From Gammaproteobacteria bacterium (GTDB lineage Bacteria; Pseudomonadota; Gammaproteobacteria; UBA4575): a DNA stretch of 64,000 bases. The stretch covers positions 960,001-1,024,000 of the forward strand of contig CBDCUI010000009.1 in the NCBI GenBank assembly GCA_965222615.1. The letters are read 5' to 3'. The position numbers were made by a program, and so were the translations under genes. Shown here in pieces: positions 1-4,051 of this stretch. The first letter of the stretch is position 1. Every line of letters starts with the position of its first letter. The notes below the pieces were generated by a model, which searched no databases, was not told the DNA's origin, and saw only the letters and a program-made list of their open reading frames with translations.

Positions 1-114
1 TACAGGATTATATTCCAGCAAAAAATGGTGTATCTCTATAATGGGCACAAATATGACAATCTTAAAGATGCGATGAGCTTTGCCAAATTAGATATGAAAT
101 CAAATAAAAATTAG
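1..114 (+). CDS. 3' end of small hypothetical protein (partial, starts before window)
   Basis: Frame 1 is open from base 1: YRIIFQQKMVYLYNGHKYDNLKDAMSFAKLDMKSNKN, TAG at 112-114; same strand as the next two ORFs. Confidence 0.5.
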   Translation, partial: YRIIFQQKMVYLYNGHKYDNLKDAMSFAKLDMKSNKN

Positions 115-147
115 AAAGTTCTTGAAAGGCATACTAAAGGGGACATT

Positions 148-537
148 ATGGAGCATATCAAAGATATTAAAATCAAAGGACTAGACCCAAAAAGAAAACC
201 CACGCTTAAAAATAAGAACTATGTAGATATAATTTTTGAGTTATCTCAAAAAGCCCCTCGAGATTGGTGTGCGGATTTCAATGTACTGGCTTCAAAAGAG
301 AGTCTTAATGCGAAAATTGATCCTAATGAGGGACTCTATGTTGAAACATGGGTGAGAAATATTAACGATATCCCACAAGAACTTGAACTTATTAAACAAC
401 TAATCATTATCTGTAGTAACTGCTTTATTGAACAGAAACAAGAAGAAGAACTAGCTTGGCAACAATCTGAAAGCACAAAAACCAATAGCCGAAGTGATGA
501 GTTGGAAACAATACTAGCAAGTCTTTCCTATGACTAA
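148..537 (+). CDS. hypothetical protein (129 aa)
   Basis: ORF with purine-rich RBS (aagggga) upstream; overlaps the start of the next ORF; no recognised domain. Confidence 0.65.
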   Translation: MEHIKDIKIKGLDPKRKPTLKNKNYVDIIFELSQKAPRDWCADFNVLASKESLNAKIDPNEGLYVETWVRNINDIPQELELIKQLIIICSNCFIEQKQEEELAWQQSESTKTNSRSDELETILASLSYD

Positions 538-784
538 TAATGCCTTGGGAAATTTTCAGCCTTATAGGCTTGTATCAATACAGAACACAGCTCCTCCAGC
601 CGGTGCATCAGGAAGCAATTGGTACTTTTATGAGATTGCTCAGGGCGCCAATCTCATTCATGGCTATCGGCAAGGAAGTCTGAAGGCTGTAACGATGTTG
701 GTGGAAGAAAATATTGCGTTGTTAAATCAACGCCAATTAGGAAAACGTGGGAATGACCATTTAAGGCAAAATTCTAAAAAGTAA
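530..784 (+). CDS. hypothetical protein (84 aa)
   Basis: 8-bp overlap with the preceding ORF suggests translational coupling; no recognised domain. Confidence 0.6.
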   Translation: MTNNALGNFQPYRLVSIQNTAPPAGASGSNWYFYEIAQGANLIHGYRQGSLKAVTMLVEENIALLNQRQLGKRGNDHLRQNSKK

Positions 785-844
785 TTTTGAAACTGACAGC
801 TTCTATTAAATAACCGTATATGGCCTCCCTCATAATGCAAGTAA

Positions 845-1050
845 AATATTGTTTGGCAAAGCAGGGTCGACTGCACACGTATATTCGGCCTCAATGGTTA
901 GCATACGTTGATGCTGGGCCATGATGGTGTATTCGCGCGCAAGCTCTCAATCGCTATTACGTACTGTACCGTACACGGACATTCTCGAGTTTCACTTGCA
1001 CCGGTTCAACCGGTTTACCATCTAATAGATTACTTCGCAATCGTGATGTG
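845..1050 (-). ncRNA. putative IS1111 bridge RNA / seekRNA (boundaries approximate)
   Basis: Minus strand reads ...CTCGAG-AATGTCCG-[hairpin]-AATAGCG-ATTGAG...TGCGCGCG-AATACACCATCAT-GGCC...GGCC-GAATATA-CGTGTGCA: two stem-closed loops whose unpaired segments match the empty target site and the circle junction. Confidence 0.75.
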
Positions 1051-1078
1051 AATTTCCTTAAGTATCGTTATTTTGTTT

Positions 1079-2113
1079 TTAGGTTACTGCCAACGCAGGA
1101 TCATAATCGGTTCCATTACGTAGCATGGCAAATGCCATGCGTACAGTTTTATTCGCCAGTGCCACCGCGGCCACATTCGTATGTTTTTGCTCTGCAAGAT
1201 TAGTCCCCCAGCGACTTAAACGATCCTCTTTATGTTTGGCTTGCGAGACCACAGCACGTGCTCCATGGATGAGTAAGGTGCGTAGATAGGCATCGCCACG
1301 TTTACTGATGCCGAGTAAATGTTCTTTGTTGCCTGAGCTATGTTGTCTGGGCGTTAACCCTAAAGATGCGGCCATCTGACGACTATTTCTATATTGTTTT
1401 GCATCCCCGACAGTTGCAATCAAAGCGGTGGCTACCATTGGTCCTACGCCACGTAATTGCTGTAACCGGGTTGTTACTTCGTTTTGTTTCGCGAAGTGTT
1501 CGATCGCTTGATCTAATTCTTGTACACGCTGATGTAATCCGATGAAATCATTCCACAGCCCTTGCAATAAAGACCGAAAACAATCCGTTAAACCATTCTC
1601 AGCATCTTCCAACCAAGTGGGAATTGTTTTGCGTAAGGTATGCAGTTGTTGTGGTGCGACCAGGCCGTATTCACTCACCAAGCCGCGTATTTGATTGGCT
1701 TTGGCGGTACGTTGTTGCACTAAAGTACTGCGAACACGATGCATGGCTTGAAGGTCTTGTTGTTCAATGCTCTTCATGGTTACAAATCGCATGTTAGGAC
1801 GACTCATGGCTTCACAGATCGCTTCAGCATCCTTGGCATCATTCTTGTTGCTTTTTACATAGGGCTTTACAAACTGGGGAGCAATGAGTTTTACGACATA
1901 GCCACGTTGTTTTAATATCCGTGCCCAGTGATGCGCACCGCTACAGGCTTCCATCCCAATCTCACAATCCGATTCGGCTGCAGCACACAACGTATCGATC
2001 CACTTACTTCGACTCAAGCGTCGTTTAAAAACACACTTTCCCGTGCGATCTACGCCGTGTAATTGAAAAACATTCTTTGCCAAATCGACACCCATGCGTG
2101 TAACCTTGTTCAT
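1079..2113 (-). CDS. IS110-family DEDD recombinase/transposase
   Basis: GVDLAK, GMEAC and KNDAKDA supply the DEDD RuvC-like tetrad; C-terminal GLTPRQHSSG carries the conserved Ser; GISKRGDAYLR motif. Confidence 0.95.
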   Translation of the reverse strand: MNKVTRMGVDLAKNVFQLHGVDRTGKCVFKRRLSRSKWIDTLCAAAESDCEIGMEACSGAHHWARILKQRGYVVKLIAPQFVKPYVKSNKNDAKDAEAICEAMSRPNMRFVTMKSIEQQDLQAMHRVRSTLVQQRTAKANQIRGLVSEYGLVAPQQLHTLRKTIPTWLEDAENGLTDCFRSLLQGLWNDFIGLHQRVQELDQAIEHFAKQNEVTTRLQQLRGVGPMVATALIATVGDAKQYRNSRQMAASLGLTPRQHSSGNKEHLLGISKRGDAYLRTLLIHGARAVVSQAKHKEDRLSRWGTNLAEQKHTNVAAVALANKTVRMAFAMLRNGTDYDPALAVT

Positions 2114-2206
2114 TGTATGGTCTCCTTCTTTTACTGACTGGTTATAATCGCTTCCAGTTTGGGCACATTGCGATGCCGTTTAAAGTAGAGGGAGGCCATA
2201 CCATTG

Positions 2207-2227
2207 CTATTGGCCGAATGCAGTCAT
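2207..2227. repeat. right part of a palindromic repeat interrupted by the IS1111 (left part 809-816)
   Basis: Joining the flanks gives AATAACCG|CTATTGGCCGAATGCAGTCAT, an imperfect hairpin. Confidence 0.6.
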
Positions 2228-2340
2228 AATTCAAGACAAAACCTGGTGTTATGCGCAAATGAATAGTGACGAAGTCACACAACTAGTTTTGCAAATTAAT
2301 AATGGCGAAGCCATGTATATTTGATGGCACAACGGATGAT

Positions 2341-2388
2341 AGGTCACATGTCACTTCGTAGTTATGATAACCACCATGGATGTGACCT
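2341..2388. repeat. short inverted repeat pair (REP-doublet-like)
   Basis: AGGTCACAT (2341-2349) and ATGTGACCT (2380-2388), perfect 9-bp IR. Confidence 0.4.
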
Positions 2389-2468
2389 GATACTACTCAA
2401 TTAACCGCTTGTAATTCGATTTTTAAATAAGAGCCTTGACCACTTTTGCTAGTAGTTTTTCAAATAAA

Positions 2469-2765
2469 TCAATAAGTAGTTTCTACTTGATTAGATACTT
2501 GTTTATCTTCTTCGACCTCTACAACTTCTAGTCTATATAATTTTTGATCCCAGACATCACCATGGTAGCTATTGACACTGTGCATAAGTTCATTACTACG
2601 TAAAAATACGTAGTCAATTCTGTCATTAGTCGAGTTTACGTACTCCATTAAGCCATCCATTTTAGAGTTCATTTCTTTTATCTTACTATTCAAATTCAGG
2701 TAAGGAAGAAATGCGCCAAAAGCAAAAGCAATAACTGCCACAAGAATTGTGTGTTTGTTTTTCAT
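2469..2765 (-). CDS. hypothetical membrane-anchored protein (98 aa)
   Basis: Basic N-terminus plus hydrophobic helix (ILVAVIAFAFGAFL), then a coiled-coil-like stretch. Confidence 0.6.
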   Translation of the reverse strand: MKNKHTILVAVIAFAFGAFLPYLNLNSKIKEMNSKMDGLMEYVNSTNDRIDYVFLRSNELMHSVNSYHGDVWDQKLYRLEVVEVEEDKQVSNQVETTY

Positions 2766-3094
2766 AATACTAATCCCTATTACGACCCACCGAACAGGTA
2801 AAAGAACCTGTAGACTATAAATTATTTTTAACCAAGGTTTTTATAAATTAGGTATAGAGTTATTCTACAACCCAACCTGGAGCAGGTATTCTACGCCTTA
2901 ATTAAAAAAAGTGGAATACGTATCATCTCGAAAATAAAAAAATTATTCTGAATATATTTTTTATTCTTTCTGTTATCCACTGCATCATTGCCAAAAAGGA
3001 TAATTGTCTCTTATAACTTTTTTTAATAGTTAATTAACTTTTGAATTTTAGATCTCAACTCACTAGTTAATCAGTATTTTGTAAGCTAGGTATT

Positions 3095-4051
3095 TTAAAT
3101 ATTAAACTCAGCCCATAAAGGACGATGATCGCTTAAATAGTAGCGCAGATATGCATTGAATTGCGCTTTTGACTTATTTTCCCACAAGGTTTTAAAAACA
3201 CCCCCATCAAAATCGAATACACCAATATTTCCTGTGAATTCTTCATCTGTTTTACCTGGTAAAAACATGATTTGATCGTACTCCGCATCCGTTGCAATAC
3301 TGGAAGCAATCTGCGTGGAGTGTGGCGGGCGTTGCAACCCTCTTTTGCGTAAAGCCGCATAGATCTTGTCACCCGGCTCTACTTTCGGAATATTAAAATC
3401 CCCCAAAACAATGATGTCTTCCACATAGGCGTTTTTACTTCTGCACCGCAAATCTGCCCATCGCGAGACCGCATAGGCTTCCAATGCCCTACGTTCTCGG
3501 TCTTTCTTTGAATCTTCCCCGAAAAACAAATGCACATTAACTAAAACAAATTCAAAAGTACCTGCACCAAAAGCCACCAAATAAGGGTTACGATCAAAGC
3601 CTTTAAATTTGCGTCGTATGCTCGGAAGTTTAATATAGTCTATATCTTTTGGAGCAACTGCAACCTCGCCAACCTTTTCCAACTGAGCGATTTTATTGCT
3701 ATCGTATAAATAGGCCATGCGCTCATCATTTCCTCCCTTATCCGAAAATGTAGCGTAATAGCTGTTAGGTAAATGTTTTTGAATACCACGTAGGCCGCTC
3801 AAATTATCTTTGACCTCTTGAAGCGCTATGATGTCGAACCAGCTAAGGATTTCTGCCAATAGTCGATAGTCTTTATCGCGGCGCTTTTGTTCACCAAGAT
3901 TGGCGATATTCCATGTGGCGATCAACAGTTTCTTGGTGGTCTTTTTGGGAATACTTCTCCCTGGTTTGGTATCCCGATAGTGACGTAATCTTTGAATTTC
4001 GATAGATGTCCTATAATTAAACCTAAAAGATGGTTTAGGAAAGGACGGCAT
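3095..4051 (-). CDS. endonuclease/exonuclease/phosphatase (EEP) family protein
   Basis: ATWNI, ALQEV, GDFN and SDHRP motifs. Confidence 0.85.
   Translation of the reverse strand: MPSFPKPSFRFNYRTSIEIQRLRHYRDTKPGRSIPKKTTKKLLIATWNIANLGEQKRRDKDYRLLAEILSWFDIIALQEVKDNLSGLRGIQKHLPNSYYATFSDKGGNDERMAYLYDSNKIAQLEKVGEVAVAPKDIDYIKLPSIRRKFKGFDRNPYLVAFGAGTFEFVLVNVHLFFGEDSKKDRERRALEAYAVSRWADLRCRSKNAYVEDIIVLGDFNIPKVEPGDKIYAALRKRGLQRPPHSTQIASSIATDAEYDQIMFLPGKTDEEFTGNIGVFDFDGGVFKTLWENKSKAQFNAYLRYYLSDHRPLWAEFNI

Follow-up and report, generated by a model that had tools for sequence, protein, structure and literature searches.

How a mobile element recognizes both the place where it inserts and the ends that it joins is the question raised by positions 817 to 2206 of the window, the whole stretch of 64,000 nt from contig CBDCUI010000009.1 (Gammaproteobacteria bacterium) that was analyzed and to which all plain coordinates below refer. 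This region is a complete insertion sequence (IS) of the IS1111 group on the minus strand, 1390 bp in length and designated here as type A of the host genome. A first-pass annotation, made from the letters alone, had described it as an RNA-programmed recombinase with legible guides; that observation is partly confirmed by the present analysis, and the RNA-guided reading is supported. The element looks functional and very probably moves as a circle by means of a DEDD recombinase that is directed by an RNA of ~180 nt, encoded downstream of the recombinase gene and on the same strand. This RNA has a defined anatomy, its structure is conserved among relatives, and four of its segments covary with their DNA partners.

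The element satisfies every feature of the IS1111 group that could be examined: the pair of domains, the group motif, subterminal repeats, a longer downstream non-coding region (NCR), and insertion that is specific for site and orientation and proceeds without duplication. Its single open reading frame (ORF; 1079-2113, minus strand) encodes a DEDD transposase of 344 amino acids (aa) with the Pfam domains PF01548 (DEDD_Tnp_IS110, residues 8-149, 5.9e-21) and PF02371 (Transposase_20, residues 215-293, 6.2e-24). The predicted catalytic residues D10, E55, D92 and D95 are retained, their roles being assigned by analogy with IS621 (PMC11208158), and the sequence GLTPRQHSSG at residues 252-261 corresponds to the GL-P----S(T)G motif that section 6 of PMC11187229 defines in the C-terminal domain of the group. 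The only solved structures that the recombinase matches are the ISCro4 (9.1e-11) and IS621 (7.6e-10) transposases, in both cases in the C-terminal domain. The subterminal inverted repeats are perfect over 13 bp and are followed by terminal extensions of 6 and 2 nt, and the non-coding DNA amounts to 262 nt downstream of the transposase gene (tnp; 817-1078) versus 93 nt upstream (2114-2206).

The host genome (3.10 Mb, 9 contigs) has six copies, namely the window copy, another of type A, and four of type B at 78-79% nucleotide identity. The two type A copies differ at 2/1390 bases, both outside the guides, which suggests recent movement. BLAST of the element against the six copies gave identical ends, so that 817-2206, the boundaries given in the first-pass annotation, are exact except for one ambiguous C. 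All copies (6/6) have the same orientation and lie between ...TTCG(G/T)CCAATAG and CGG(A/T)(C/T)AT..., the target being the right arm of a hairpin that resembles a repeated extragenic palindrome (REP), CCAATAG^CGGACATT. The full hairpin is AATGTCCGCT-TTCGGCCAAT-AGCGGACATT, and its loop motif occurs 20 times in the genome at no more than one mismatch; the IS sits in six of these, and five others are clearly empty hairpins. The latter have an uninterrupted CCAATAG-CGG (...TTCGGCCAATAG-CGG...), the empty-site sequence is CCAATAGCGG with no duplication, and the insertion point is thereby fixed to within one shared C.

Relatives of the element were taken from two sources: the host taxonomic family, in which 5/56 genomes (its own included) matched at E <=1e-40, and a large collection represented by one genome per species, which gave 80 loci with 41-72% protein identity. 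A sequence profile of the non-coding region already matched 41/80 loci. The consensus fold of a 25-sequence alignment has 33 pairs, 16 of them with compensatory changes, and a covariance model built from it, with helix P1 deliberately excluded, found 91 matches in 90 sources; these describe an RNA of ~185 nt, located just 3' of the transposase gene in nearly all relatives. There are exactly 11 matches in the host genome, each beside a recombinase gene. Of the cells in the model alignment, 96.9% pair, and 26/28 pairs are changed on both sides; sliding the partners by 1-3 columns lowers the paired share to 24-45%. The alignment was fitted to the structure model, which favors the 96.9% figure. 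Types A and B keep both segments of the target loop (loop 1 of the first-pass annotation), and their stems differ by compensatory changes. A scan of positions 1-3000 against Rfam 15, at E up to 1, gave 0 matches, and Rfam appears to hold no model that detects the RNA described here. The features of the RNA and of the element are collected in Table 1.

Table 1. Positions of the RNA, its helices and guides, the element ends and the target site in the window, and of the type C copies by genome contig.
Feature	Position	Strand	Remarks
seekRNA/bridge RNA gene	862-1050	-	covariance model 183.6 bits, only match in the window; structured core 868-1043
Helix P0	1037-1043 with 868-874	-	terminal helix closing the whole RNA
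Helix P1	1018-1022 with 923-927	-	read as masking the left-end guide
Small hairpin	1002-1015 (approximate)	-	between P1 and P2
Target-binding arm	937-1001	-	P2 and P3
Helix P2	994-1001 with 937-944	-	target arm; all 8 pairs changed on both sides
Helix P3	985-989 with 946-950	-	target arm; all 3 pairs changed on both sides
Inner hairpin P4	961-974	-	GUAC...GUAC; hairpin of the target loop; all 4 pairs compensatory
Helix P5 and distal hairpin	887-920 (917-920 with 887-890)	-	GGCC/GGCC, between the donor guides; 99.4% paired, 2/4 pairs compensatory
5' target guide AAUGUCC(G)	976-983	-	complementary to top strand of right half-site, GGACATT (+C)
3' target guide AAUAGC(G)	952-958	-	same sense as left half-site AATAG + core C; complementary to bottom strand
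5' donor guide ACCAU	924-928	-	complementary to left-end positions 3-7 (ATGGT); four of five bases also in 3' strand of P1
3' donor guide AUAUAC	879-884	-	same sense as right-end terminus ...ATATA + core C
Left subterminal inverted repeat	2188-2200	-	TATGGCCTCCCTC on minus strand; terminal extension CAATGG 2201-2206; inverted-repeat search
Right subterminal inverted repeat	819-831	-	GAGGGAGGCCATA on minus strand; terminal extension 817-818; inverted-repeat search
Left target half-site	2207-2236	-	...CCAATAG, loop and left arm of degenerate REP-like hairpin
Right target half-site, window copy	809-816	-	CGGTTATT; guide predicts CGGACATT; one G-T wobble and one mismatch
Candidate -35 box TTGCAT	835-840	-	16 nt from TA|CAAT after circularization; junction promoter candidate
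Type C copies L020-L024	G000:C9:253800-255047, C7:816840-818087, C7:820878-822125, C8:552-1799, C8:2534-3781		

The two target guides flank P4 inside P3 and P2, and they overlap at the insertion point by CG. Guide-DNA agreement was scored across the relatives after 23/91 alignment rows had been dropped (for a repeat score <10, flanks that were short, or gapped guide columns) and a further 3 whose best inverted repeat was unlike an element end, leaving 65; merging of guide-plus-DNA duplicates then gave 65, 63, 41 and 34 loci for the target 5', target 3', donor 5' and donor 3' segments, respectively. The observed scores were 7.11/9, 5.78/7, 4.61/5 and 5.79/6, against 4.72, 4.03, 3.97 and 4.17 after shuffling, and for each segment 0/5000 flank shuffles reached the observed value. 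Among the guides tested, 53 of the 5' segment and 47 of the 3' segment were distinct, and the best-offset scores of non-cognate or shuffled target pairs were 4.6-4.7 (5' guide) and 3.9-4.0 (3' guide). Best-offset scores were used for the 5' target guide because, in the model alignment, the loop columns are displaced between subfamilies; in a fixed register it is only 27-67% Watson-Crick per position. The other guides hold in the fixed-register profile (64 loci): five flank bases (each in 54-60/64) plus the core match the left target guide, the left-end guide is Watson-Crick with bases 3-7 in 52-64/64, and the right-end guide is identical in 63-64/64. The base that follows the core is the same as the target +1 base in both left-side guides (52 and 56 of 64), and the next two bases of the target guide equal left-end bases 3-4 (53 and 57 of 64). 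These post-core bases, of which the first matches the flank of the other partner, look like the handshake positions of IS621 (PMC11208158), a likeness that consists of conserved bases and not of covariation.

The covariation can be followed in individual pairs. Left ends and 5' donor guides change together from CAATGGT/ACCAU to CAATGGG/CCCAU, TAATGAA/UUCAU, GAATGAT/AUCAU and GAATACG/CGUAU, and right ends and 3' donor guides from ATAC/AUAUAC to GTAC/AUGUAC, ACAC/AUACAC and AGATG/AUAGAUG, with ATCTATG also seen. Single-base changes of target are found in L008 (flank CCCAAAG|, guide CAAAGC), L029 (flank CGGACACTC, complementary guide GAGUGUCCG) and L031 (flank GGTCATT, guide AAUGACC). Complete natural retargeting is seen in L036, with the site CGTTCC|CGCGGGAA and the guides UUCCCGCG / CGUUCCC, and also in L038, L055, L040 and L104. 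Judged from these alignments, the positions read are probably 5 nt plus the core on the left of the target, about 7-8 nt on its right, and 5 nt at each element end.

Applied to the host genome, the target guides specify a site of 13 nt. Removal of the window copy yields AATAACCG|CTATT on the plus strand, an 11/13 match with the guide-derived AATGTCCGCTATT, as the first-pass annotation had stated; considered as RNA-DNA pairs, the two deviations are a G-T wobble and a U-T mismatch. Before insertion, the sites of the six copies departed from the guide-derived sequence at 2 (window copy), 1, 2, 1, 0 and 0 positions, the perfect 13/13 sites being those of L005 and L006. No unoccupied perfect copy of the guide-derived 13-mer exists in the genome, which has 6 copies at <=1 mismatch and 89 at <=2.

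A further IS1111-group element of the host, type C, is represented by five identical copies (Table 1), and its recombinase is 43% identical in aa sequence to that of the window. Its own site, GACC-CAA-AGCGGA, belongs to a sister hairpin family (loop AACGACCCAA) and is matched on its two strands by the guides UCCGCUUUG / CGACCCAA; type C is an independent instance of guide-site matching. It inserts 4 nt upstream of the type A/B position, the 3-nt CAA being common to element and target, and several of its copies lie 1-2 kb from type B copies, forming IS clusters.

Most of what the first-pass annotation had read in the RNA proved accurate. The segments it named are present on the minus strand, namely AATGTCCG (976-983), AATAGCG (952-958), ACCAT (924-928) and ATATAC (879-884), as are the stems CTCGA/TTGAG (985-989/946-950) and GGCC/GGCC (917-920/887-890). 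The covariation with flanks and ends in relatives falls on both of its target guides and both of its donor guides, and the covariance-model check that it had proposed detected guide-flank covariation. Its loop 1 (an outer stem, two 9-nt strands and an inner hairpin) is found in the single-sequence fold and in the family consensus, with compensatory changes, and the minimum-energy fold of 181 nt of the window recovers the consensus helices. The stem TGCGCGCG/CGTGTGCA, which had been drawn as closing loop 2, can form here, but its five innermost pairs are 56.1% paired among 88 distinct relatives and show no covariation. It was rejected on these family data; in the consensus its bases belong to P2 and P0, and the donor guides sit in a multi-branch junction rather than a simple closed loop. 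A second ACCATTG at 892-898, pointed out alongside the donor guide, is present but not conserved in type B or other relatives (a sister element in the same genome reads ATCAATAG); it was rejected as a second donor guide and is taken as a coincidence.

Helix P1, absent from the alignment model, was predicted de novo by RNAalifold, and is 95.2% paired with 4/5 pairs compensatory. Its 5' strand is a copy of the top strand of the left end, and its 3' strand is the CCAU of the left-end guide. At 71 loci, the left-end base 6, the guide base and its P1 partner are G/C/G in 58, A/U/A in 6 and mixed in 7. The left-end guide is read as masked in the free RNA, and the P1 and left-end pairings exclude each other, and both appear to be under selection. 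It is possible, although we regard it as doubtful, that P1 acts as a conformational gate in which the left-end guide of the IS1111 group is normally locked in an intramolecular helix. If so, the gate might open only on encountering a correctly matching donor end, or only in a long precursor, and it could couple donor capture to RNA processing or keep the ribonucleoprotein (RNP) off integrated copies. The passages of the related literature consulted here do not mention a masking helix; figures or supplements of the two 2024 papers may already show P0, P1 and the donor pairings for IS1111 elements, and newness is not claimed.

These features fit a mechanism in which the element would first excise to a circle. 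Circularization would assemble a promoter, TTGCAT-16 nt-TA|CAAT, reading into the recombinase gene and the RNA; a junction promoter of this kind (Pjunc) belongs to the mechanism published for the family, and a score of at least 9/12 is reached in 48/65 distinct junctions of the family. The target arm would present two single-stranded segments, one on either side of a small hairpin, of which AAUGUCC(G) would pair right of the insertion point, with the top strand, and AAUAGC(G) left of it, with the bottom strand. ACCAU is predicted to pair with left-end bases 3-7 and AUAUAC with the right-end terminus plus the shared C, these donor segments matching both sides of the circle junction ...CCATATA^CAATGGT.... 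Within the RNP, the RNA would then pair with target and circle junction, each on both strands, and strand exchange would take place at the shared C. The same layout and function have been found by experiment in ISEc11, ISPa11 and ISKpn4 (PMC11187229 sections 9, 10 and 14). By analogy with these elements and with IS621, the RNA is presumably made, bound by the recombinase, required for movement and reprogrammable.

Several points weigh against this reading. The folding energy of the region is not significant, with z-scores of -0.56 (262 nt) and -0.76 (181 nt) and with 52 and 50 of 200 shuffles folding equally well; the single-sequence fold recovers the same helices at an energy no better than that of shuffled sequence. 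Relatives share ancestry, and the shuffle tests therefore overstate independence. A search of sequencing runs listed no RNA run containing the element. The junction promoter of the window element (TTGCAT, 16 nt, TACAAT) scores only 8/12, a consensus match only, with no circle seen. Flanks must match the guide for excision (PMC11187229 section 14), and the two right-flank mismatches of the window copy could lower its re-excision. Four of the five left-end guide bases are in P1 and are thus not freely available. An 82-nt short seekRNA is sufficient to move mini-ISEc11 (Siddiquee et al., PMC11187229 section 10); it would correspond, by analogy, to the target arm only, without donor segments, and the donor segments may therefore be dispensable or serve another step.

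The last two observations also support the strongest alternative, which we consider unlikely: that only the target arm guides, the protein reading the element ends through the subterminal repeats, with ACCAU and AUAUAC having roles in folding, processing or regulation of the precursor. In the seekRNA model, it is the transposase that recognizes the ends (PMC11187229 sections 10 and 14; PMC13604230, Fig. 2 legend), and the CCAU belongs to a helix that is conserved although it lay outside the alignment model. However, the terminal bases of the ends and both donor segments change together, which folding alone would not demand. The guide base that faces left-end position 7 is outside P1 and still tracks the DNA (52 Watson-Crick and 6 G-U of 64), and donor-complementary nucleotides have been described in the multi-loop of many IS1111 orthologues (Durrant et al., PMC11208160 section 12).

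It is still less probable, at roughly half the weight we give to guidance by the target arm alone, that the window copy is an immobile relic, with RNA and recombinase genes intact in sequence but inactive or silent at this site. Its right flank mismatches the guide at 2/8 positions, and upstream promoters in the integrated state are at background: a sigma-70 and terminator scan of 700-2300 found 4 promoter-like sequences versus 2.9 expected and 3 terminator-like versus 2.0, and is uninformative on an internal RNA promoter. L009, a visibly decayed relative of the same genus, still has its RNA region, which scores 173.7 bits. Against this, the ORF of the window copy is open with all catalytic residues present, both repeats are perfect, and the second type A copy, elsewhere in the genome, is different at only two bases. 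Hardly credible, and already disfavored, is the view that the matches arise from the palindromic nature of the target, the NCR carrying a captured remnant of a REP-like hairpin and not guides. In this element, the 5' guide does have the sequence of the left hairpin arm, and the 3' guide that of the loop end and start of the right arm, so that the two segments follow the same order as in the hairpin, but relatives whose targets are unrelated show flank matches at these two positions of the RNA as well, and what lies between them is a conserved RNA hairpin with compensatory changes and not the target loop.

RNA guidance of IS1111 elements, the downstream location of the RNA, natural and engineered retargeting, and predicted donor pairing have all been published (PMC11187229; PMC11208160 section 12). 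The window element is a new member of this RNA-guided recombinase family with readable specificity, and leaves the mechanism published in 2024 unchanged. It resembles the seekRNA elements ISEc11, ISPa11 and ISKpn4/ISPst6 (PMC11187229) in its DEDD transposase of ~340 aa, subterminal repeats and long downstream NCR, in opposite-strand target segments that overlap at the insertion point and in natural retargeting among relatives; like ISPa11, it has a target of REP type. Its guides are also arranged in the same order, the segment complementary to the top strand being 5' of that for the bottom strand, with overlap in the target (PMC11187229 section 9). It differs in its recombinase, which is <=72% identical to its best match (among one genome per species), and in having its own target, CCAATAG^CGGACATT. 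The parts of PMC11187229 cited here report experiments, whereas the present evidence is drawn from sequence, and covariation with donor ends, found here, is not claimed in them.

With IS621 and the predicted IS1111 bridge RNAs (PMC11208160; PMC11208158), the RNA has in common a bispecific design with target and donor parts, the reading of the left half of the DNA on the bottom strand and of the right half on the top strand, and a shared core base at the crossover; placement of donor nucleotides in a multi-loop is as described for many IS1111 orthologues in section 12 of PMC11208160. The RNA departs from that of IS621 in its location, downstream of tnp instead of upstream, and in the opposite order of the guides in each loop. 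Rather than standing in tandem, the target arm is enclosed by the donor junction, and the left-end guide is read as masked by P1. Instead of the CT dinucleotide of IS621, a single base, C, is common to target (C-G) and donor (C-A), and the protein match to IS621 and ISCro4 is confined to the C-terminal domain. ISPpu9-type elements (PMC12288879) similarly occupy a fixed position and orientation in repeated extragenic palindromes, with several copies per genome and a small RNA gene downstream of tnp, but belong to another host lineage and use another hairpin family than the one with loop TTCGGCCAAT. The case illustrates that an RNA-guided recombinase can be recognized from raw sequence and its target and donor specificity read, and the known programmable recombinases gain a compact recombinase-RNA pair (344 aa and about 180 nt) whose 13-nt target is defined. 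Prior experiments on the IS1111 group concerned target guides only, and the reading of the ends has been credited to the protein; the family-wide analysis gives statistical support for donor-end guides in IS1111 elements, and it also brought out the conserved helix that is read as masking one of them.

Other copies and relatives show individual variations. L006 (G000:C9:255312-256735), of type B, has a 16-nt tandem duplication (CGCTTGCTATCAATAG) in the distal hairpin of P5 and still scores 175.6 bits, and this hairpin therefore tolerates insertions. L009 (genome G001), the single copy in the sister species, is decayed through E55G in the catalytic motif, loss of a short stretch after the DARDA motif and degeneration of its subterminal repeats; its guides are unchanged, and it lies at CCAATAG|CAGACATT. 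In a genome of the same family (G051) there is a GC-rich relative with 50% identity, present as three copies inside coding sequence (L010, L013 and L016). Its guides match the flanks (AGCACT left, GGTTTGA right), and the translated right flank looks, by eye, like the C-terminal part of a transposase from a different IS family.

Sequence data from one study also contain the element. In three DNA contig sets, the contig holding it (window 813-2217) has about twice the depth of its flanks (for example, 17.3 versus 9.1 and 77.9 versus 35.2), which is consistent with two copies per genome, and one set has both base differences (864 and 1008) that distinguish the other type A copy. No empty-site or circle-junction joint was present in four DNA contig sets of this study, and nothing is concluded from the missing joints. 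Megablast of the element against the PLSDB plasmids gave zero matches.

A repeat of ~40 nt (GCATCGACCTATTGAGACCACAG...) is found genome-wide in the host, e.g., at C9:787381, C9(-):851280, C8(-):1094308 and C9:266555. It ends in a sequence like (A/G)TTAGCGGACATT, and by its sequence appears to be a further repeat family that has the GCGGACAT arm in common. In the window, the element lies ~25 nt downstream of two small, overlapping ORFs on the plus strand (129 and 84 aa; 148-784) with no assigned function. A minus-strand ORF of 318 aa (3095-4051) ends in SDHRP, which we take to be typical of enzymes with the endonuclease/exonuclease/phosphatase fold.

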